DNA of 63,799 nucleotides, filler included, from Folioceros fuciformis (lineage: Eukaryota), in assembly GCA_049999805.1 (NCBI GenBank). It is 11 parts of 11 records of this genome, joined end to end, with 100 filler letters (N's around TTAATTAATTAA, not from the genome) between each part and the next. Parts side by side here need not be neighbours in the genome. Positions count along the whole stretch, not along the records: positions 47,980 to 52,510 come from JBNGIO010001241.1; 10 more parts are not named here. One strand, written 5' to 3'. Positions within the stretch are counted from its first letter, which is position 1. Each line of letters starts with the position of its first letter. This document shows positions 3,001 through 63,799 of this stretch, in pieces. A program made the translations under genes and the position numbers. Below the pieces are notes generated by a model that saw only the letters and a list, made by a program, of their open reading frames with translations, was not told where the DNA came from and did not search any database.

Positions 3001-4218
3001 TCTCTGTCTGCCCGTGGCCCCTGAACGGATTTCACTGCGGCTCGCCTTGGACAGGGCGGAACATGAGAGCCAGGAGCACCCAGTTGGCAACGCTGTTCCC
3101 ACCATGAAGACAGCGTCACATGGTGGGCTCCGGGAGAGCCAAGGGCAGGGCATAGCGAGCACTTTTGGGACTTGATTCCATCCTCCTCGCTCTCCTGCTG
3201 GCTGGGGACTCATTATAAGAGCTGGCGTTGGGAAGCCCAGGCTATCCTCAATATTCCCACTCTGCGGAAGCCAGCATCGTACCAACCTCGTCAGCGCGGG
3301 GCCTGTCCTGGCCAGGCTGCACAGCACAGCTGTGACATGGGAAGTAATAAGCCAGGCCGCCCCGTGTGCTCTGACATCTGATAACCACGTCGGATGCTGT
3401 GCTGCGCTGGCAGATTGGTTCTTCCACGCTCACTCGTTCTTGCAGATTCCGTGTTTCAATGCGCACTTCTCGTTCTCTCACGGTCGAGTCAGACATCGGC
3501 ACAGCCCGCATGTTCGTTCGTTGAAACCTTCATCATCTCTCACGATTTGTGCCAGCCGTGAGTCTGGCTCAGTAATCAGCAGGCTGGGGCTATAGGCGGG
3601 AAGTGGCCTCCATCATTTCCTGGCAACAACGTACAGACATGCAACACACCCTGGACATGTACGTGTGGACCATCTTCCGTCCCTGTGCTGGCAGTCCGTC
3701 CACCTTGCCTCTCACTCAAGCACTCACCAGAATCCACAGGGCTACTAAATGCCAAGGGACCCTCAACCTAACTTGCCCAAAAAGGAACCGCAGATGGGAT
3801 GTTCGATGAGTGTCTGTGACACTGTCTGTCAGTTGGGCCGCAAGCATCCATCGCCATCGCCATCGTAGGCATCCCCCTCATGTTCTGGCATTAGATTTTG
3901 GCATCAGTGAGAATCCGGCTTCTCGTGACTCGACTCGTGGGTCGGTGCAAAGAGTGACTCCTGCATGGTGCCATTCCCCCGCCAGGCTCCAAGATGCATA
4001 TACATGTGTTGCCAACCTGCTTGCCCTCAAATTTACGGCCCTGTATGCAAAAGCGTGTCCAGCCATGGAGATCGTCACAACGTAGGGTAACCTAGTTTTA
4101 GACAACCTAACAAGGCACATGTATTAGCTAACAACAAATATACCTACCTAGCAAGTTAAGATCTCATAAAGTAACTGAATATATATGGACACCTCTACAA
4201 CCTATATAGAGGTGTGTG

Positions 4219-5001
4219 ATGGAAGGTGTTGCTTCATCAACTTCTGAACTTCCAATCGATACACCTGGTGATCCCCTAGTTCCTATCATTGAGCTGTCAA
4301 TCACTTTGCGGGCAGCCCGCAAGAAGGCAAGGGACTTTCGTCGTCGCTTGTCTCATCTTGCTGGTGAGCTTGCCCGCGAAAAAGAAAAATCCGCTCACCT
4401 TGAAGATGAAGTTTTGAGGGAGAGAAATCAATCGGCTACTCTTTTAAGGGAACTTGACGCTAGTAGGCAAAGGCTACATCAAGCTCAATTGCCCCTTCCG
4501 AGACAAATTCTTGTTGGAGACATAGGGTATCTGAATGATAGGATTAGTTATGTGGAAGCAGCACTGGAATGGTTACGGAGGCAAGAAAAGGTTCCTAACG
4601 AGTGTTCAATATGCATAGAGCACTATGATCATCTATCCAAAATAGTGAACATTCCTGGATGTGGTCATCAGTTTCATTTTGAATGCATTGAAAGATGGAG
4701 CTCAACCTTCTTGCCAAATGAAGCCACGGAGTGCCCATCATGTCGCCAACCATTTTCTTTGAAGGATGTAGCCCCTGCTGCTTGGCTTCCTCCTTTAGAA
4801 CATCCTCCTCTTGAATACGAACCTTCTTACATAGGCCCACAATTACCTCCAGCGCCCTTTCCAGACAATCAAGTGCCTTCATCCCATCAAACAATGCAAA
4901 TGTTACCTCTATTACCATCTCCAAACTTAGCTAGACAATCTTCTAGGGAAAGACGTTCAGAAGCAGTGGGATCTGATGCTTCATCAACAGTTGGAGATTA
5001 A
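4219..5001 (+). CDS. Intronless coiled-coil + RING-H2 zinc-finger protein (putative E3 ubiquitin ligase)
   Basis: ATG at 4219, open to 5001. CSIC-x15-CGHQFHFEC-x3-W...CPSC fits the C3H2C3 RING-H2 pattern. It has a heptad-like charged N-terminal half and a Pro-rich tail. Confidence 0.7.
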   Translation: MEGVASSTSELPIDTPGDPLVPIIELSITLRAARKKARDFRRRLSHLAGELAREKEKSAHLEDEVLRERNQSATLLRELDASRQRLHQAQLPLPRQILVGDIGYLNDRISYVEAALEWLRRQEKVPNECSICIEHYDHLSKIVNIPGCGHQFHFECIERWSSTFLPNEATECPSCRQPFSLKDVAPAAWLPPLEHPPLEYEPSYIGPQLPPAPFPDNQVPSSHQTMQMLPLLPSPNLARQSSRERRSEAVGSDASSTVGD

Positions 5002-43095: not shown

Positions 43096-43494
43096 GCCTA
43101 CCCGGTGTGGAGCCTACTTGGCATGAAGACTACCTAGTGGGGAGCCTACGCAATAGGAAGACTATCGGCGGGTACTGGCAATACGCATACCTGGCAAGTA
43201 GTTTAACCGACGGACAACTTAGCCGGTAAGTAGCTTACCCAGGTGGTATACAAATTGGTTATTAAATTAAATTAAAAAAGTCTAGAGGGCATTGCTTATG
43301 AAGATTAGTACTCTACGACACACATAGGCTAGTTAAGTTGTGTGAATGTCTAGTGTTGACAATGGCGAAAGCAATCATGAGTACAGATTGGAGTTGGAAT
43401 ACTTCTCACCAGTGATGGCCCACAGTTCAAGTATTCAAGAGGCATGTGGCGATGATGAGAAGAAAAAAAAGGTTGAACAACCACGAAGGCAACC

Positions 43495-44310
43495 ATGGAG
43501 AGTTTGGAGCAAGGAGGCAAGCATGAGGTGTTCACGGGAAGACTTAGGAGCTTGACGTTTGAGGACAAGATTAAGGCCATATTGAGAGAATTGAAATTAA
43601 AAAACCCAACAAGGTACATTTTGCATTTTGGGTTTACTCAAATGACTAGGTATCTTCGAGGCAAAGCGTTGGATGCTTACAGGAAGCACAAGACGGAGCT
43701 CACACGTTTCACTATGATGACTGCGAGTGAAATGTCAACAATAGTGAAGTAGTACAATCATGAGGATCTAGTCAAGGAGAGGATGGATATCTTAAGAGGA
43801 GAGTTTTCAAGGACGTCGTTAGAAAAGGTATATGAGATAACACATTTTGTGCAAAAGCAAGGAGAGACTTTCAAGATGATGTACAGGAGGCTAGAAAGGT
43901 TGGTGGAACACATCGAAATCCTCTATGGGAAGCATTGCTTCCCACTCACACTTCAACAACTTGCCAAGTTGTTGAAGTGTACTTGAACAACATTCCAGTG
44001 CAACTGCGGAACAAAGTGACTACACAACTGTGGGGAACATTTGGGCAGTGGTACACATTGAAGGATGCCTACGCAATTACTGAGAAGATGGATCCAATGG
44101 AAGCATACAGTAGAGCTTTTGTGGAGCAAATGTAAAGGCCAAGCAGCAACCAACCAAGACTTAGAGAGGGAGCAAGGCAGCAATTCAAATCTGGGGTGAC
44201 AAAAGTTTATGGTAGGCTAAGGCAAGCTAATAGGGCCATGAAGAGAATGAAGGATAGGTGTTACAGGTGTGAGAGCCCAAAACACAAAGTGAAGGAATGT
44301 TCTTACTCAG
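43495..44310 (+). pseudogene. Degenerate retrotransposon gag with CCHC zinc knuckle
   Basis: Fragments YLRGKALDAY, QKQGETFKMMYRRLERL (gag MHR-like) and VYLNNIPVQLRNKV. At about 44258-44300, CYRCESPKHKVKEC fits Cx2Cx4Hx4C. It is interrupted by stops and frameshifts. Confidence 0.75.
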
Positions 44311-46319
44311 TTGGAGGGGATAGAGCTCATGTGAAGTGCAACAGGTGATATTAAGTACGCCATACAAAATTTGTGTGTTGGCAACTACATCTAGAGTTAA
44401 AGCTAGCAATAGGCTAGCCTAGCAACAATGCTAGTGTTGCCTGTGTATGCAGCAACTGTTAGATGAATAATAGATTGTACCCCGTCCTAGGGTTAGATAT
44501 TTANNNNNNNNNNNNNNNNNNNNNNNNNNNNNNNNNNNNNNNNNNNNTTAATTAATTAANNNNNNNNNNNNNNNNNNNNNNNNNNNNNNNNNNNNNNNNN
44601 NNNGTTTAGAAAAAGGAAGAAAATCATGTAGAAAAATGAAAACCAATTTTCTATTTATTTTCTTGGCTCCTTTCCTATCTACTAGCCTATGGGATTTGAT
44701 TGGGTGTAAGTAACCTGGTCCTCAAGACGGATAAAGGGGGAGGGGGAGCCTTAAAGGTTTTTCTCTCTACTAACATTTATCCTATTGACCATCTTACATT
44801 CTCTTATCTCCTAGCCACTAATCTTAGCAAACATGACAAGGAATCGTCGCTCTTAGCCCTAAGCACGTCGCATTGGAGAGGATAGGGAGCAATCTCATGG
44901 GCGTGCCAACCAATGGAGAGTCACTCGAGGTTTTGGCTTCACTCCAACACCTCGCCATTACCAGATGTTCGGCGAGAATCGGGTGGATGCCCTCATACAT
45001 ACCTTGCAAGATCAAGGGTGGTCTCTGCCATTAGGATTCCATCTTCATCAGTTTGAGACAGCAGCAGATCACTTAGAAGTGCGCTTGAACCATCAACATT
45101 GGAGAGCACAAGAACGATTGAGAAGATCTGATTCTCTGTCTCAATCTCAGCCCAATTCTAGCCAAAATTCATCACAGAGAGGTGCTTCTCCAGGGGGCCT
45201 TGATTGACTCAGGCCCCACAGGCATCTGGATTCCTCAACTGACTGTGAATCGCCGAGGAGTTTTGTGCATTGGGTGGAGAGCGATGATGAATTGATCGTC
45301 ACCGAATCTCAACAATTTCGGCATTCGTCATGACAGGGGAGGCACAAGATCTTATTAGGCCCCCGGGGCACCCCATCTGCTGGAGTCGCCATCGACCAAG
45401 GAGGCGCGCCTACAGCGATCTCACTGCCGACCGCCATCCTTGCCGACCTCGAAGGTTCAGCACTCCCTACGAGAGGCGCGCCAAGCAGCCTTGGCAATTC
45501 ACTTGCGTAGGCGGTTGCGCCCGACGGCAAATCGTTATCCAACTTAAGTTGGATAATGGGCGCCCTTGAACGGGTGCCACCCGTTCGATGTAACAGTGCA
45601 CCCGTTTGACAAAATGGCGTGCCCGTTCCGCGAATAGGTGTCACCTTCGTTACGTCAAACGGGGCCTCTAATTCTTTTTCTTTCGCTCTTGTTAATTGTT
45701 TTGGGCTCTTTTCGAGCAGAAATTAGTGGAGATTTTGGTGGCAATCCTTCTCAACTCCGACGGCTCTTGGCTATGCAAAGTGTGCCTCCTACACACGATT
45801 TCAACACTAGGACATCGTCAATACCTGCCATCGTAGCTGTTAAGGAGGAACCAAGATCGTCCTCTCTGGCTTTCGAGACTTTGGAAGCTGCCTACAAGGA
45901 GTTCAAGTACAACGAGGCCGAAGCCCAAGCTTCTGCTCCAAAGCAATGCACTCTCCATTATCAAAATCTCTGGGAGTCGATCACACACATCAACACTAAT
46001 CTTGTGAATGTTGCTGAAATTGTTTGGCAAATTGATTCAAGCTTTGATAGGGCGATTGCTCTAAAAAACAATCTTGGAGCACAGGATATGGCTGATGCAT
46101 TGTCACTAACCCTAAATAGTAGTAATGTAACCAAAACTAAAGTAGTATTTCTAACATGGTTTTGTCTTTCACATTGAAGGAGACCAACTTCGACAATGTT
46201 AGTATGATGGTAGATCTAGCAAGCTCATCTAGATCTTGCCACTCATCTTGAGTCATGCTGTGGAGTCCACATGATGAACAGATCCCCTAGAAAATAGCAG
46301 AGTTTGTTTTTTTTGGGTT

Positions 46320-47979: not shown

Positions 47980-48231
47980 TAGTTGGTTTTGAAAGTTCCT
48001 CATCGCCCTTTCGTCTAGTTGGTTTTGAAAGTTCCTCATCGCCCTTTCGTCTAGTTGGTTTTGAAAGTTCCTCATCGCCCTTTCGTCTAGTTGGTTTTGA
48101 AAGTTCCTCATCGCCCTTTCGTCTAGTTGGTTTTGAAAGTTCCTCATCGCCCTTTCGTCTAGTTGGTTTTGAAAGTTCCTCATCGCCCTTTCGTCTAGTT
48201 GGTTTTGAAAGTTCCTCATCGCCCTTTCGTC
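47980..48231. repeat. Perfect 7 x 36-bp tandem repeat (no spacers)
   Basis: tagttggttttgaaagttcctcatcgccctttcgtc repeated seven times identically up to the contig edge. On the minus strand it reads (DERAMRNFQNQL)n. Confidence 0.97.
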
Positions 48232-48498
48232 TGACAAATTTGGATAACAACTTAACAGCTCTTGCACATGTGGTGTTGCCACAACTTGAACCTACACATC
48301 TAGGTCACAATAGACATATTTTCTTATCTTCACACCACTTCGCAACATTGCTTCCAACCCTGAGCATATGCTACCCAACAACTCCACTAGTGTGATCCCT
48401 TCATTGGTAACATTCCACTCAATGATCCTTTGGTGCACTAGATGGTTGCTAGCAATCACACTCTGGTCTTGGCTGTATGATTCCGGTTGGTACTCCAC
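48196..48498 (-). pseudogene. Decayed C5-cytosine DNA methyltransferase N-terminal fragment (motifs I-II), retrotransposon-borne type
   Basis: One frame reads NEGITLVELLGSICSGLEAMLRSGVKIRKYVYCDLDV*VQVVATPHVQELLSCYPNL. ELLGSICSG is two point changes from an ELFGGICSG-type SAM-binding motif I, and YVYCD supplies the motif II acid. There is an in-frame stop at 48292-48294. Confidence 0.6.
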
Positions 48499-49676
48499 AT
48501 GCTCAACATGTCACCGGGCTTCAGAACGTTATTAGCTCCACAATTTGCATTTCTGGCCAGCACATGGACATTAGGCGAAGAACAATAAACTGCATTCCCA
48601 CCGTTGTAAGAGGATGAGGCCGACCTTTGCAGAGGTTGGCGACAAGATCAAGAGGATTCTCGTTTGAAGTAGCACCGCCACTAGAATCCATCGTGCTGCT
48701 TGTTGGCAACGAAGACTCACACTGCCACCTTAATTAACTCAGGAAACCTACTTAAAGCCACCGGTATGTTTTAACCCTAGGTACTAAACTCGTTTAGAAT
48801 ATAGCGGTGCCTACCGGGTTCTGCTCAATTTTCAGACGTGCAAGACTTGAACATCACCTAGGTATACCGTGGGAACAAGGGTAACGAGTTTCTTCATTTC
48901 AATCGGTAAGGCCCTTCGTTAACTAAGGAGTTAACATTCGACAAGATGTTGCTCGTAAATTTCGGGCAATAGAGTTTGTTGGGAGCGAGACGCAGTCTGG
49001 AGGGATGGTTCTCGCCTTCACTGGCCTTCACGGCTTTTGCAGGAGGATAACCTATATCGTTTCCCGTATGGAAAAAAGAGACAATTCTAGTCAACATACA
49101 TCTTGAGATCCCAACCATTTCCGTCCACGGAACATTCTGCACCAAAGCAGGCGCATTCGGAGGTCGGGGAAAGGGGAATTTCACAACGGGTTGAGAAACC
49201 ATTTGCACATGCACTGCGGCAAAAATCCTCAGCACTCAGCCACTAAAAAAATATGTACAAACAGCACATGAACAGATTTAGAAGTGTTGCCATTGCAACT
49301 TCATAATACAGGGTCAAATCATGCCAACTTCAGTGCTGCTGGCCTTGCTATAGGCTGTTGAAACAAATAGCACTCCGACAACCATCTAAGGATTACTCCG
49401 TTCACAGTATTTCCAGCTGCAGCCACAGTACAGGACGCTGCTTGCCTACGACCACGTGCTGGAAGATGAAGCTGCGGCCGAGCACTTGGTGAGAGGGAAG
49501 CACCTCACACCTGTTAAGCTCGCTCCTTACATCCCTGAAAGGCATTCCACAGATGTACCTTATGACGTGCGGGGAAAAAAACAGGAGTGACGGCAACTTT
49601 TGCAAGTTGAATGTACTTGACCCACAAGTGCCATTTGTCTTGAGGTAGTATAGAACGACAAGAAATGAAGCTCTTC

Positions 49677-50530
49677 TTACTCCGCCTCCGCCTCGCTGGA
49701 GTCCTTGCTCTCAAATCTGATGTCCAGAGTCCTCATCTCACCAAAAACATTTTCATCGTCATACCGGAATCCTTCAAACTCTTGCATCTCCTTGCTGTAC
49801 TCCTGGTACTCAGGTTTCACACGCCTAACTGGAATTGTGACTGAATACACCGTTCCAAGATCTGGATCTGTGGAGACGTTCAGCTGCACTTTGTCCTCTG
49901 ACTCGATCTCAACAAAGTCTGCAAGAGCCCCAACGATGTTGGTAACAATTCTTCTCTTCGCCGCATCATTCACGGAGCAGCGATCGGAGATGAGAATCAT
50001 TTTCAGCCTCTGCTTGGCAACCGCCGCGTTTGACGACGTCTTCCGTTTGACGGGGAAAAGTATTTGCCAAGCTCGAACCAACCTCTGCAGGAAGCCCAAG
50101 TCCTCTTCCTCTGGAAAATATTCCACCTCTGGCGGCTGCGCGAATGCTATTCCGGCAACCTTCCTGTCCTCCACCAGAGCTCGACATTGGTGGCTACTTC
50201 GAAGTCCTAAAGCTCCACCGTGACTTCTCAGACCGTCGCACTTAAAAGACGCGCCAGACGCCAAATCCTGCACGTGAGCGACCCGTCCTACGCTCATCTG
50301 CACACACGATCATGCCTCACTGTCGACAGAAAGAACCAAGCCTTAAGACAGCAATTTGGGAGAAAAACTACACCAGAACTTCCACAGCTGTTCAAGGAAG
50401 AGCGCAACAGAGGCCATCAGCCAATGCAGGAAAATGGAGGAAATCGGACCTTGCTGCAGGAGCCGACATCAGCGGAAAAGGGAGCTCCCAAGAATGTTCC
50501 CGTCGCATGACGGCACGCCAGGCTGGTCAT
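49677..50530 (-). CDS. MINE1: Plastid division topological specificity factor MinE; 2 exons
   Basis: Exon 1 50530-50450 (MTSLACRHATGTFLGAPFSADVGSCSK, transit-like), a GT-AG intron, then exon 2 50297-49677. It contains FLQRLVRAWQILFP, NAAVAKQRLKMILISDRC and EDKVQLNVSTDPDLGTVYSVTIPVRRVKPEYQE, the plant MinE signature. Confidence 0.93.
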
Positions 50531-53500
50531 AGCTCCTGGCAGTCGGTCGGACAGCACACGAACTGCTAGACGAAGCTGCAGGAAGGATGTGCGACTCGAC
50601 CAACGACAGCCGGAATAGGCAACCTCATACACCACAACCGGAACCCTAACTTGAGAAAAAGCTGAACGGTCGAGTCGACTCTTCGGTTGGAAACCACTCT
50701 CAATCCCTCAATCTTGACCCGGCCTCATGGAACCAAGAGGCCCTGCTTCGAGTTTGAAAAAAAAAAATCTCTGGACCACCGTGACCACTGACCAGAAAGT
50801 TTCAGAGGAGCGTATCCGTTACGTGTTCTGTCAGAGGCTTGTTCGTCCTTGGGCTTGTTCGTCCTTGATCAATTGTGCCTCCGTCCCTAAAATCTCCGTG
50901 TATAGCGGGCACGGGGGGGAGCCGTAGTGCGACGTTCGCCAGAATCGCCAACGGCGTCAGATTGTTTCATATGTGCAAATACATTTTCCCCCTTAACTTT
51001 ATGGCTTGGTTAAGAAACAAGTTGTGTGGCCGGGGCAGCACTATGGAATACCGAAAGGAAAGGGACATTGGTTGGACACATATGTTTTTTTTTTCAATTA
51101 CATACTTCATATATAAATATACCTCAGAATTTAATATAGATGCTCGTATTGTATATAGCTACATCACGGGCCCACCTCAATATGGTATACCATATTATGT
51201 TTTCCTCTATGTATAAGGTTATTGACTGATGGGGACACAAGGTTTTTTTAGTGGAGGAGGAGGAGTAATCGATCATGGAGTGTAGTATAGTGTAGCATGA
51301 TGTGTTCTTGTTGCTAAGGATCGCGCAAGAGCCAAGCAAACACTATTGGACTTGTAAGTCAACAAAAGATCAATTAAAGTGGACATATATATCATATTCA
51401 TTGATATGAAATACAGTGAGTTTTAGACAGACTATATTGATATACGGTCAAAGTGGAATAACAAAAACAAAGAAACATCTAAGAAATTATTCTAAAAAAA
51501 CTGAAAAATAAAATAAAAGAGCTAAGATCAAGGGAGAGAACTCACAATGCACCCAAAGAGGACTAAATAAATAATGCTTGTTTCGAATCTCTCTTTCCAA
51601 GAGATACATGGAGCGCATAACATACTATGGTAGAGTTTAAAAAAAAAAAAATCTTCGAGAGAGTGAGATGCAGAAATAGAGATAGATTAAGGCATAGTGC
51701 AAGTGAGTAGTTATAGTGTGTCAAGAGTGAGGTAGAGAGTCATTCATCAACCCATTCAAGCTTTAGTTGTGTTAATGTGCCTACTATTAGATCAAGCGAC
51801 ATGTCCAGGGATTTCAATAAAAGACTAAGCTACTGCAACTACCCTATTATTTAGAATTGAGCAACATACTTGTTCGAAGGAAGTTTATGTAATACTATAT
51901 ATGACTATATGAAATTGTTGTGTGTGTGTGTGTGACCACGTAGGAACCACCGAAGGATAATACGACTTCAAAAACTTGGAAAATGCCTTGCACATGGCAT
52001 GTGGTTCTCAACGACGAGTGGGTATTTAAATTCTTTTCATACCTTGGAAGTGTAAATATACTAGCCTTAAGTGTCCCGACCTACTTAAGAGAGTAGAGAT
52101 TAAGCTAAAATTTTTGCATTTAATAGGGATGGGAATGCCGTGAAAACGATCAAGATAATTACGTTACTTCATTGGAACGGAAGTATGTATCCAAAGATGA
52201 TATTTACCTTCCTTGCTGTGCTCTCCAGCCAAAGCCGGACCACGAAGCGCGTGGGCGGAGTGCGGGTTGACGAATCGTTGTCACGGCTCAGTTTGGAGTT
52301 TCAGATTTTGTTTTTTTAAAATTAAATGTATATGATTTAATATCATGAAATATTATATATTTATAGGTAATGGGGATTTTTATTTTTGCCACTGGAAGAG
52401 TTTCAGAGTTTGAAACTGTGAAGAATCTGAATTCCGCCTCGAGCGGAATTGGGAACATTACTCGTACAATCGAGTACGTATACATACATACATACATACG
52501 TACTTAGATCNNNNNNNNNNNNNNNNNNNNNNNNNNNNNNNNNNNNNNNNNNNNTTAATTAATTAANNNNNNNNNNNNNNNNNNNNNNNNNNNNNNNNNN
52601 NNNNNNNNNNAGGCTCTACCTGTCCGCAGGCATGGAGTGTGCTGTGCTGCGAAACTTTTAATTGGGCTGGGAAGGAGGGGTTGAAGGTTGCACCTGCAAT
52701 TCCTTCTCGAGCTTGGATTCACACAGCATCAGAGAGGGGGTGTGCTGGCAGCCGATTACTGTACCTACGTAAGGCCTCCTTTGGTTCACATACATACGGT
52801 GCCCACTATTGGCGCTGCCCGTACTTCTCAACCTGCTTCTATTTCCTGGTGTCTTTCACTCTGCCTTTCACTCTGCCTCTTCAACCAATCTCCTTCAACA
52901 TCTCCGCGCGAGGCATAGTAACGTATGTGGTCAGAGTGCTCAACTTGTTCAGGCCTGAGGAGGTGAAATGCAACCATGACATCGGGCCTGTAGCCTCTCA
53001 GAAAATCTAGAACAACCATGCCACAATGACAGGGAGAAGAGAAGGTCGTCCAGGCGAAAGAAAAATAAAACTATGAACACCGAACCCGCCAGGCGCACCT
53101 TCTTTGGCAGCATCATCCGACCCCATGAAGACTCCCCAGGCCACACCTCCCTGCATGCCACACAATGTGCGGGGATGTAAACCACAATTCGCCGAACCAT
53201 ATTCCAACTCCACAACCGCTGCTACAACCCGAACGTCACTCAGCTCATGCCAAGGCCACCTCCTCTGCCGGCCCCTCAAGCTCAAGAGCACAATTGCAAA
53301 CTGCGCCACGTTGCAATCGATAAAATTCCCTTCTCTACACCAGCGTGACAAGACTCAATCAAGAAGCACCGCATTGCAGACAGCGAAGAACAAGCGTAAT
53401 CAAAGCCGTGACAGCTGGACATCGGCACCAAACCAGTCGTGAAATCAACAAACACGAATCCATCCACAGCACGCGAGGTGCAAGGCACATCCCAGGCATC

Positions 53501-56150: not shown

Positions 56151-56328
56151 AGAAAATGATGCGTGCTTGCCCAGGATATGGCCGTGACGCTGACACAGAT
56201 CGATGGTGGGTGCAGGTGATTGTGTAGAGTGGGATTCCTCATAGACTGCAATTGTCGTACATTTGCCCAAGCCGGTGGCTGGCTGGGTGGCTAGCGTCGA
56301 AGAGTGGTGGTGAAGTGCATCGGCTGGC

Positions 56329-58457
56329 ATGGCAAGTTCGAGCTCCAGTAGACTGAGGGCCCAGGTTCTGGAGGCGGATCTTATTGAGTGGCCGTTTCTT
56401 AGGGATTACATGGCAGTGCGTCTCTCCGAGGTTCCGAAAATTGTACCGAGGTTTCGGAATGTGGATGTGGATATGCAGGCATTTCCTCTTGAGTGGCAGC
56501 GGCTTCTGGCCGATCTGCGTGGCGTCCCTGGGCCATCGGCTGCAGATGGTTCCCACACGCCGCAGACGTTACGGCTGACGAAGTATCCTCCTCCTTATGT
56601 GACGTGGCGGGAATTTGACGATGATATCCAGAACCATCGTTGGGAAAGAGTGCAGGTGTGGCGAATGGTCATGCTACAGGTGTTGGATGCTGTTAGCGTA
56701 TGCCCGACTCTTGAGGATATTAGGCTAAGTGTGGTAATATCATCTGTACTGGACGTGGAAGGATGGGTTCGGTTCATGGTATCTTTATCCGGCAACCCCA
56801 ATCTAGCTACCCTGAAGTTATACACACCGGACAGGAAAGATCCTGCGTATTGGGTAGCTCTAGAACAACTACTGCTGCAAAGTCCTAAACTGAGCAAGCT
56901 GGTCATGTGTGGTAAGATAGAGTGGTTGCGGACGACGTGGAGTTTGACGTGGAAGGTGGACAACAGAAACGTGGACAAGTTGGAGCGGGGTAATGGTGAA
57001 CGGAAAGATAGTTACAATACAGATGTTCTCCACAACTGCAGCTTGATGTGGAGCAAGGTGCAGGATAATTCCTCCTCCGCATTGCGAGTGTTGCGCATGG
57101 ATCATGCGCTAATCATTGATGATGGGGTCTTGTCCATTAAAGCAGGTGATGCTGATGATGCTGCTGATGCTGATGGAGCAGTGGCATCATTTGTGAAAAT
57201 ATTGGAGGAAAATCGCGACGTCTGTTTACGAAAATTGTCTATTTCTCATAGAAACACCTTTAAAACAATAGGTGTTAAACGATGGGAGAATGTGGTAAAG
57301 AAAGTAGCAATGGCATTGTCCAGGAACCATTGTCTGCAAGTATTAAAGATAAATTCGCCAGTTGATCAACTGTCGGAGTGGAAAGAACTGCAACAATTCC
57401 TGCTCATCGCATTAGGTGAATCGAAAGGTGGAATGAATGAGGAGGTGGTAGTGGGCAATAGATCTATCACCCGCCTCTGCCTTCGGAAATGTCCACCTCA
57501 ATGTCTGACAGCATTGAAGGAAGTGTTGAGAGTGAATGCCAAGTTGGAAATATGTCATCTCCTCATGGAGGATGACGAGGTAAGATGGGGGAGGGGTTAT
57601 AAGTCAAAAGATATGGATAGTATATTCGATAAAGGACTGAAAGAATTACATGTAACTGGATATTGGCCAACGACCTTCTTGCGGATAGTGCTCACCTCTG
57701 TAGGGCGAAATACATCACTAGAAACTGTGGTCCTCGGTGCGGCAAATGCGAGGAAGCTGTTTGCAGACATGCCGCGTATTTTGAACCAAAATTGCACATT
57801 GAGAAACTTGGAAATAGATGACGAGCGGTGGCAAAACAGCAGCAGCTTTGCCTTGGTAGAGCAGATTGTAAATCGCAACCGCCGCCAAGCCGTATACTTA
57901 CCTACACTATACCGACAACAACTCCATTTTGATATTCCACAAGTGGGTAGACTTTTTCTTTGTGGACCTCCGCAAGCAGGTAAAAAAACATTGCGATTTT
58001 TTTGGTTATTACTCGTAATTACTTTCCTGATGTTAACGCTACTTATTCTTTGCTTGTTGTTATTTATATGGAATACGTGTGTGGTTAAATGTGTGTAGGG
58101 AAAACCACTATACGCCGAAATATGGTCCGTCATTTCCGTCATTTCAAAGGATGTACATATTTGTCAATACCATCCCGAATCCCATGGGTGATGACCAAAG
58201 GCATCGAAATCGAAAACATCATAACTCATGAGAAAGATTTTCAAGTAAGCATTTGGGATCTTGCTGGGCAAGTTGAATTTCGTATTCTCCATGATTATCT
58301 CTTTCCTAATATTCACCAAGCCTGCTTATTTTGCTTTGTGTTTAGTCCCTTTAACCATACATCAGGTCAGATGATGTCTATTGAAACGATGAGTGTAGAG
58401 TTTGAACAAGAGTTGTCATATTGGTTATCATTTATTGCGTCTAATGTCAAACAGGGA
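56329..58457 (+). CDS. TORNADO1-like ROCO protein (RNI-like LRR + Roc GTPase), truncated by contig end
   Basis: Exon 56329-57979, intron 57980-58098, exon 58099->58457. Splicing yields the P-loop RLFLCGPPQAGKTT, then TKGIEI (G2), SIWDLAGQVEFRILHDYLFP (G3) and ELSYWLSFIASN. Upstream are repeats of the type LxxNxxLxxLxI. Confidence 0.85.
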
Positions 58458-58601
58458 NNNNNNNNNNNNNNNNNNNNNNNNNNNNNNNNNNNNNNNNNNN
58501 NTTAATTAATTAANNNNNNNNNNNNNNNNNNNNNNNNNNNNNNNNNNNNNNNNNNNNGGAGGACATATATGTTGGACGGGGTGTAGGGGGAAGCGGTGAA
58601 T

Positions 58602-62572: not shown

Positions 62573-63799
62573 GCCTTTTATTCTAGTGAGTATGAAATCT
62601 TCGACTACGTGGTCCAATGATCAAGCTCTCTAGAAGTTTACAAAGAAGAAGTGTCTTTACTGCTGGCGGGCACCTTTTAATGCACCAGCTCATAAAAACA
62701 GCTAATACGGTTGTTGTTCATGTCCCGTGAAATCTGAAATATACTAATTACTGATATATTGTGAATAACTATAGCTAGGATATATCTATTTATATATATT
62801 TTTCACTCCCACTTAGACTAGCTATGGTTATCTATCTACTCTTCGAGCCCCTCTCGTTTTGAGCTCGCTGTCTAGCACTTCACTTCACGCGCTATCGATC
62901 ACTCTTGCGATCCCGGTTCTTCGATGTTCTCTTGTCGTTCACACCTGCAATCAAAGTACCCGACTTCGCAGACTCATTCCGTCCGCCCTCCGGCACACGT
63001 TTGCTGTGGAATTTGCCATGTGCAGGCTCATTATTGACACTCTGTTCTGGCGGCGAGAATCTTGATGATGTCGCCAGCCCTAAAGCACTCACGAGCCTCA
63101 AATGCCTCTCCTTGGGCAGGGCCTTGGTTAGTAGATCTGCCACGTTCTGTTCGGTTGGCACATATTCAAGGTTGATGACGTTGTCTTCAAGCGCCTTTCG
63201 AACGAAGTGTTGTTTAACCTCAAAGTGCCGTGTCCTTGCATGTGCAATTGGATTTCTCGCTATAGCAATCGCGGACTGGTTGTCGCACCACATATTCGCA
63301 GGCTCAACCTGTTTGTATCCAAATGATTCAAGCAAAATTCTCATGTGCATAACCTCTTGCGTGGCCAAAGTGGCAGCAACATACTCTGCTTCTGTTGAAG
63401 AGAGCGCGACTATGGACTGTTTCTTCGAAGACCAGCTCACAAGACATCCTCCAACTTTTACATAGTAAGCTGACACAGATTTCCTCGAATCTCGGTCTGC
63501 TGCCCAATCTGAATATGACATGCATGTTATTCTCATTTTCTGTTGTTCTTCACTCTTTTTATACAACAATCCTATATCTGACGTGCCCTTTAAATACCTT
63601 AGGATGCGTTGTGCAGCGGACCAGTGCTGCAAGTCTGGGTTGGATAGAAACTGAGACACAACCGACGTGGCATATGATATATCGGGCCTGGTCCAATTAC
63701 TCAGCTAGAGCAGGCAGCCAACAAGCATGTGATATGGCACATCTCGCATCTTTGCTATCTCAGACTCAGTTTTAGGACTCATATCTTGTGTCAAAATTG
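62573..63799 (-). mobile_element. Ty1/copia retrotransposon 3' end: RT/RNase H, polypurine tract (PPT) and start of 3' LTR; degenerate
   Basis: TRPDISYA, HWSAAQRILRYLKGT, SDWAADRDSRKS, WSSKKQSIVALSSTEAEYVA, CDNQSAI and ADLLTKAL. A PPT-like AAGTGGGAG (62814-62806) is followed by TG at 62805. There is an in-frame stop upstream of RPDI, and YSDWA replaces the usual DSDWA. Confidence 0.93.

Follow-up and report, generated by a model that had tools for sequence, protein, structure and literature searches.

A dead Ty3/Gypsy fragment in Folioceros fuciformis marks a young and diverse family of retrotransposons carrying a DNMT3-type methyltransferase

The relic and its surroundings in the window

The window analyzed here is the whole stretch of 63,799 nucleotides from the assembly of Folioceros fuciformis (GCA_049999805.1), in which 11 parts of 11 records are joined end to end by ten artificial spacers. 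The relic of a DNA methyltransferase (DNMT) gene lies at the start of contig C1241 (JBNGIO010001241.1), which occupies window positions 47980-52510. The features of this region and one related fragment are as follows:

43188..44436, plus strand: second fragment of family C (Gag region) near the end of another window contig, 82% to the Gag region of contig C4960
47880..47979, no strand: artificial spacer between concatenated contigs (N run with stop linker); the sequence past it is not a true neighbor
47980..48232, minus strand: 36-bp (12-codon) piece of the DNMT gene, repeated in seven perfect copies where the contig ends; this number of copies may have arisen in assembly
48196..48509, minus strand: relic, comprising the linker and the N-terminal part of a DNMT3-type methyltransferase (motifs I-II and a helix) from a dead Gypsy copy of family C (blastn, 88-92% to five sister copies)
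48292..48294, minus strand: internal TAG stop in the translated relic frame
48358..48384, minus strand: decayed motif I (SAM-binding loop), aligned with the corresponding motif in family A and DNMT3A
49677..50309, minus strand: host frame for MinE (plastid division), 1.2 kb away from the relic and also on C1241 (Pfam MinE, E 4e-12)

The relic peptide is encoded by the minus-strand frame running from 48510 to 48235, which is intronless and carries a single stop, the TAG at 48294-48292, as the first-pass annotation had described. The limits proposed there for the relic (48196..48510) were nearly exact, since homology to the sister copies covers 48196-48509. Over these 314 bp, three copies align end to end at 88-89% identity, and two others align in part at 89-92%. 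Family homology stops at 48509 (blastn), and neither Gag nor protease was found upstream of the relic; because no family sequence lies beyond this position, the relic is considered cut at its 5′ side. When searched alone against Pfam, it matched no family at E values up to 10, and the expected methyltransferase profile match was obtained with longer copies of the family, L039 and C2064, both of which pass the cut-off of PF00145. The relic also matched the uninterrupted polyproteins of the family (E 8e-10 for family A and 1e-10 for family B), agreed with the family alignment at an hhalign probability of 99.1%, and was placed in family C with an SH-aLRT support of 99. Used as a query against its own genome (87 Mb in 7,240 contigs), it found at least 96 matching places, with 96 of the 102 candidates scored.

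The contig begins at 47980 with the seven perfect 36-bp units, each of which corresponds to DNMT coding sequence and is in frame; sister copies carry this unit once (87-89% alike). The exact unit occurs at nine places in the genome, seven in C1241 and two at the start of contig C2064, with matching orientation, and C2064 opens with 83 bases that match the array exactly. From there, the frame of C2064 continues through motifs IV and VI (Pfam DNA_methylase, E 1e-10), followed by reverse transcriptase (RT), RNase H, and integrase sequences with stops, frameshifts, and an inverted last part. The start of C2064 and the relic both fall in family C (SH-aLRT 99), and the overlap of the arrays suggests that they are most likely a single dead copy split by the assembler. 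The relic frame stops because the contig ends in this in-frame tandem duplication. The catalytic motif had rightly been recorded as missing from the visible relic, but its absence cannot be counted as a loss, given that the contig ends in the array and that C2064 extends the frame to motifs IV and VI. That the copy is dead was borne out by the internal TAG of the relic and by the disruptions of C2064. As candidate vector or adapter sequence, the array was ruled out, since it is DNMT coding sequence and gave no exact match to contigs of viruses or prokaryotes. Motif VI of C2064 is followed by another tandem duplication, of about 30 bp and likewise in frame (around 330-390), and the inverted part (3225-4960) is flanked by pieces that, by eye, seem to be of Copia type.

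Regarding the surrounding DNA, the MinE frame ties the relic to plant nuclear DNA through their shared contig; it is one open frame of 210 amino acids and apparently intronless. The fragment of family C at 43188-44436 also matched the Gag region of family B (tblastn, E 1e-21). Elsewhere in the window, a cellulose-synthase-like D exon was 83% identical to a lycophyte, 81% to liverworts, and 80% to a moss, Selaginella, and a conifer, and the named species among its 120 listed matches were all land plants. Long frames at 56314-58505 (plus strand) resemble what we take to be a TORNADO1-type gene with leucine-rich and Roc GTPase parts, while the RNase H end of a Copia-type element was recognized by eye at 62892-63704 (minus strand). 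Outside the window, the genome carries an intron-containing LCIB gene (L090, C1919:3650-5150), which, according to the available text of Li et al. (2020, PMC8075897), is found among land plants only in hornworts. Together with the land-plant matches of the exon, this gene makes it probable that the host is a hornwort.

Architecture of the elements and their methyltransferase domain

The relic is a plain dead fragment, and the family that it marks is real, young, and diverse, made up of elements similar to KnitGypsy-Dnmt3. A full-domain query of the genome gave at least 125 matches (122 of 191 candidates scored), which are not to be read as copy numbers, and the DNMT-carrying elements comprise at least four deep families, in line with the family of methyltransferase-carrying retroelements that had been postulated from the relic. 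The clearest example, on contig C5196, is a stop-free frame of 2,386 amino acids composed of a Gag-like region, protease, DNMT, RT, RNase H, integrase, and a PHD finger. Its DNA_methylase score of 21.3 bits is just below the cut-off of 22, and a sister frame reaches 25.1 bits. In L033, Gag, protease, RT, RNase H, and integrase follow the Ty3/Gypsy order; the Gag call relies on position, a Cys-His knuckle, and likeness to the N-termini of Klebsormidium and Calypogeia proteins, as Gag had no Pfam match. Five further copies of family A share 96-99.8% DNA identity, and the copies of family B, with the same domain order, are 97-99.6% alike, although short-read assembly can merge near-identical copies. 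A contig of 9,251 bp from a public run, which may be the source of the assembly, spans the 2,386-aa frame with 18 differences and no gap.

A land-plant C5 methyltransferase carried by a transposable element, as proposed by the first-pass annotation, was thus recovered in longer copies with motifs IV, VI, and VIII beside protease, RT, RNase H, and integrase, and can be refined to a DNMT3-type enzyme within a Ty3/Gypsy element. The integrase is of the DDE type (Pfam rve and H2C2), whereas the other neighbor that had been considered, a tyrosine recombinase, was absent from the polyprotein. Motifs IV and VI were both present as anticipated, but motif IV reads WEC and not PC.

The ends of the elements are organized as split repeats. 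In the complete copy on C6246, a repeat A (470 bp) is followed by the coding region, a purine tract, a repeat B (111 bp), and second copies of A and B; the element has TG...CA ends and is flanked by a target duplication of 4 bp. Identity between its A repeats is 97.2%, compared with 98.9% for those of C6012. The 4-bp duplication was found in both elements with both ends present (C6246 and, across an assembly gap, C6046). Family B shows the split-repeat ends and junction of family A and a 4-bp duplication across an assembly gap, and family C has the B-A-B tail at the 3′ end only; in all three families, the purine tract precedes the first B. Two complete identical LTRs were not encountered in these elements, their repeats being split (A...B-A-B), and by eye the bases after the first A in family A do not start with the usual TGG of a tRNA primer site. 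These elements are Ty3/Gypsy retrotransposons that insert by integrase, as indicated by the TG...CA ends and the 4-bp target duplication. At the B-A junction, families A, B, and C have in common a short palindrome with two bases between the CA end and the TG end. In a folding control, this junction formed a hairpin (z -2.9), as the palindrome predicts, and the A-B junction formed no structure (z -0.2). The B-A junction resembles head-to-head integrase attachment sites and may be the point at which the integrating ends are cut out. The palindrome (L048, which is C6246, and L036, L041, L042, and L046) is kept though the proteins of the families are only about 40% alike.

In every uninterrupted frame examined, the DNMT lies inside the polyprotein and is intronless. 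Among eight RT-bearing loci without a listed DNMT match, none had the protease joined directly to RT, as a DNMT-less version would; two contained a DNMT remnant, three were truncated (upstream DNA without a Gag, protease, or DNMT match), and three lay at a contig edge. Separately, the A-group copies L129, L130, L131, and L133 were observed to lack Gag and protease as well as all or most of the DNMT, with a Copia-like Gag occupying their place in L133.

At the family level, the DNMT domain has motifs I, IV (Cys), VI (EN), VIII (RxR), IX, and X in canonical order and a DNMT3 fold; the window relic itself shows motifs I-II only. The best solved relatives by sequence were DNMT3A/B/C (E 8e-11), with the bacterial M.HhaI at an E of about 1, and the fold model (pLDDT 91) matched DNMT3A/B/C in Foldseek with an E of 2e-18 and a TM of 0.82 on the target. 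Likewise, the Atlas assigned DNA_methylase clusters at 0.96. Among the 30 copies in this genome, which are mostly dead, the catalytic Cys is kept in 29, the motif VI Glu in 26 and Asn in 28, and each motif VIII arginine in 20, against a mean column conservation of 0.64. The Pro position of motif IV is occupied by Glu in 30/30. Within subfamilies, the median dN/dS was 0.21-0.52 (pairwise, 26/30 copies), a range that includes decay after insertion; between A-group subfamilies, pS was 0.72-0.84 and pN 0.20-0.33. These figures refer to the DNMT domain alone. With synonymous sites saturated and pN at this level, purifying selection is seen to act on the DNMT domain of at least four families. TAG accounts for 59 of the 90 stops in the frames of these copies, a share that would fit decay by host methylation. 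The observed/expected CG ratio was 0.32-0.37 in family A and 0.53-0.61 in family B, compared with 0.31-0.47 in nine of ten DNMT-less Gypsy frames, and hence extra CG depletion as a mark of self-methylation was not found in these two families. The tenth DNMT-less frame (L122, contig C6318) lacks CG depletion (0.99) and may be a recent arrival or foreign DNA. The PHD finger is nearest to KDM5 PHD1, WSTF, BAZ2, and UHRF1, a type that binds unmethylated H3K4, as the ADD domain does in animal DNMT3.

The host methyltransferases are separate from the transposon copies, and consist of two CMT genes, MET1-like frames, and a spliced DNMT3 with the PC motif; DRM and DNMT2 were not identified in the genome. 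The CMT and DNMT3 genes that were inspected contain introns. In a quick tree, the host DNMT3 (contig C4480) sat on a long branch of 2.19 changes per column and showed no close relationship to the transposon copies. The phylogeny foreseen as a check places the relic among the transposon copies, in family C, but leaves the host DNMT3 as a long, unplaced branch. With at least 125 matches and a polyprotein context, the elements do not behave as a few-copy, intron-containing host gene.

Relatives, origin, and published record

A profile search retrieved 568 representatives at E < 1e-30. The named homologues, five clusters among 30 proteins looked up, came from the liverwort Calypogeia fissa, Closterium (two), Klebsormidium nitens (GAQ93235.1), and Scenedesmus. 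Calypogeia fissa has two such proteins, on records of 66.6 Mb and 14.8 Mb, with Gag, protease, DNMT, and the start of RT, and the DNMT of the protein on the 66.6-Mb record is 53% identical to that of the F. fuciformis elements. No vascular-plant name appeared among 43 matches (8,000 candidates scored per search), in a setting where annotations usually mask transposons. Considering the 95 homologues with both DNMT and RT, the DNMT precedes RT in 15 and follows RNase H in 80. The species-identified members of the first type are all streptophytes, while the sole identified species of the second is a chlorophyte.

In quick trees, the A group of F. fuciformis joins Calypogeia and metagenome proteins with a support of 99 for the DNMT and 96 for the RT, and families B, C, and D fall apart from this group. 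Holding all F. fuciformis elements together was rejected (AU p 0.0017, 10 rows vs 16) for a group chosen after the first tree was seen; this rejection implies that at least two lineages predate the hornwort-liverwort split or that one moved between bryophytes. Additionally, eight DNMT-less Gypsy RTs of the host were separated from all DNMT carriers (support 100, with a thin outgroup), which makes a single old capture of the DNMT compatible with the tree. The F. fuciformis and Klebsormidium elements are alike in domain order and broad group; their deep branching differs between two quick trees (support 82-84), and the Klebsormidium protein, being partial, was left out of the RT tree. We consider it probable that the lineage of the relic consists of Ty3/Gypsy relatives of KnitGypsy-Dnmt3 that have long been resident in bryophytes.

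Such elements have been described from dinoflagellates and one charophyte alga in the available text of PMC5890265, and Morozov et al. (2019, PMC6338049; text available in part) regarded methylase-encoding transposons as absent from land plants such as tracheophytes. The species table of de Mendoza et al. (PMC5890265), as far as available, includes Selaginella and Physcomitrella, and the words Anthoceros and Marchantia do not occur in three supplements of that article. In their accessible parts, Sarre et al. (2025) and a 2026 preprint refer to "streptophytes" with no named land plant, and the supplements of the preprint might list bryophyte copies. No such element was found in the accessible literature on hornwort genomes and hornwort chromatin, nor any land-plant report of one in a literature made up mostly of papers free of subscription.

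The young copies (about 99% alike, with an uninterrupted frame) and their liverwort relatives change the picture from a capture in the Klebsormidium lineage to an old and widespread lineage. They also make it possible to ask what benefit a transposon draws from encoding a cytosine methyltransferase in a plant group whose methylome has been published (PMC10952607), and allow the role of the enzyme to be studied in a land plant. A practical consequence is that transposon copies can inflate the number of DNMT3 genes counted in bryophyte genomes.

Proposed role and comparison with known systems

The anatomy of the polyprotein and the selection on its DNMT domain can be read directly, and from them we infer the release, activity, and target of the enzyme. 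We lean slightly towards a role in marking the element's own copies. The protease would release the DNMT domain from the polyprotein, and the freed domain would be packaged together with RT and integrase and would methylate cytosines, most likely at CG, on the new cDNA, so that copies arrive pre-marked. The PHD finger would guide the integrase to silent chromatin, and the element might gain stealth or self-restraint, given a host in which repeats are silenced by MET1 and CMT. The activity of the related Symbiodinium domains in yeast (PMC5890265, available text) speaks for this role. Against it stand the Glu in place of Pro in motif IV (although the Cys is retained and the Glu form is the commonest among homologues), the survival of the motif VIII arginines in no more than 20 of the 30 copies, the inactive Klebsormidium domain, and CG ratios that give no hint of additional self-methylation.

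It is unlikely that the domain is instead kept for a non-catalytic job, such as binding cDNA or RNA in the particle or acting as a decoy for host silencing proteins. Such a job would fit the Pro-to-Glu change next to the catalytic Cys in all 30 copies, the absence of added CG loss, and the inactivity in yeast of the Klebsormidium domain, a result judged inconclusive by its authors (PMC5890265, available text). Yet a 17-sequence alignment shows no variation at the Cys, the motif VI E-N, or either of the motif VIII arginines, and the two forms of motif IV coexist among 247 homologues (GWEC in 115, GWPC in 51, other in 26, and unmatched in 55), which is unlike decay.

We regard as somewhat more doubtful still an active enzyme working in trans, with the host genome or foreign DNA (other transposons and viruses included) as its target in place of its own cDNA. 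Morozov et al. suggested anti-viral roles for transposon methylases (PMC6338049, available text), and the lack of element-specific CG depletion would suit a non-self target; against this, no domesticated, intron-containing, or RT-free intact DNMT copy was seen in the genome, the domain sits within the polyprotein in every uninterrupted frame examined, and the host owns a DNMT3. Finally, the notion that the elements stem from algal contamination or reached the plant contigs through misassembly, for which one could cite the many uninterrupted copies on short contigs (2-13 kb) and the algal origin of the nearest described relatives, is very improbable and largely refuted by the MinE frame on the contig of the relic, copies within contigs of 93-628 kb (SNF2-like and PPR-like frames, identified by eye, adjoin one of them), target duplications joining elements to their flanks, the liverwort protein of 53% identity on a 66.6-Mb record, and three runs from two studies under one organism label that contain 81-93% of the element's words and cover 30/30 bins (one of them may be the source of the assembly, and run X4, with a share of 0.10, was left out of this count). 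No RNA data set was listed among the runs carrying the element, and run X1 is at most a putative one.

Returning to the marking of own copies as the preferred role, it can be combined with the trees into a joint scenario that we offer tentatively, as possible and no further. One DNMT3 capture by a Gypsy element near the base of green plants would have passed down to the chlorophytes, where the DNMT follows RNase H, and to the streptophytes, where it precedes RT, would have entered land plants as at least two lineages, and would survive in hornworts, liverworts, and mosses. In F. fuciformis, it would be mobile as an active writer-plus-reader (DNMT3 with an H3K4me0-type PHD finger) that pre-methylates its own copies and integrates via the palindromic B-A junction.

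Among known systems, the closest is KnitGypsy-Dnmt3 of K. nitens, for which the available text of de Mendoza et al. (2018, PMC5890265) describes a DNMT3-type domain in a Gypsy element with A-coding-B-A-B repeats and calls it an acquisition in that lineage. Our elements share with it, as far as described there, the DNMT3-type domain in an intronless Gypsy polyprotein, the split repeats, and purifying selection. The protein GAQ93235.1, which is taken as the product of KnitGypsy-Dnmt3, has the same Gag-protease-DNMT order with 30% identity over 583 amino acids. In contrast to this algal system, the host here is an embryophyte whose genome alone contains at least four deep families, motif IV reads WEC where the Klebsormidium protein has FPC, and a C-terminal PHD finger is present, none being named in the available text on KnitGypsy-Dnmt3 (PMC5890265). 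The 4-bp target duplication and the palindromic B-A junction are described here from the sequence.

SymbioDIRS-Dnmt3 likewise has a DNMT3 domain in Pol and the same repeat arrangement, but its available description is that of a tyrosine-recombinase DIRS element, whereas the elements of F. fuciformis use a DDE integrase. The DNMT3 domains of Symbiodinium transposons carried out de novo CG methylation in yeast (PMC5890265, available text). A pol protein of Scenedesmus sp. PABB004 (KAF8056149.1) resembles our elements in its DNMT clade, integrase, and PHD finger, and differs in having the DNMT between RNase H and integrase. A large set of Gypsy polyproteins (P0003, P0004, P0257, and others) with this same placement was also observed and was not met in the literature consulted. 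Lastly, the plant DNMT3 (Yaari et al. 2019, PMC6453930, as far as available) and animal DNMT3A have the fold and the order of motifs I, IV, VI, VIII, IX, and X in common with the transposon enzyme, while the host DNMT3 of F. fuciformis is set apart by its introns and PC motif from the intronless transposon copies with WEC.
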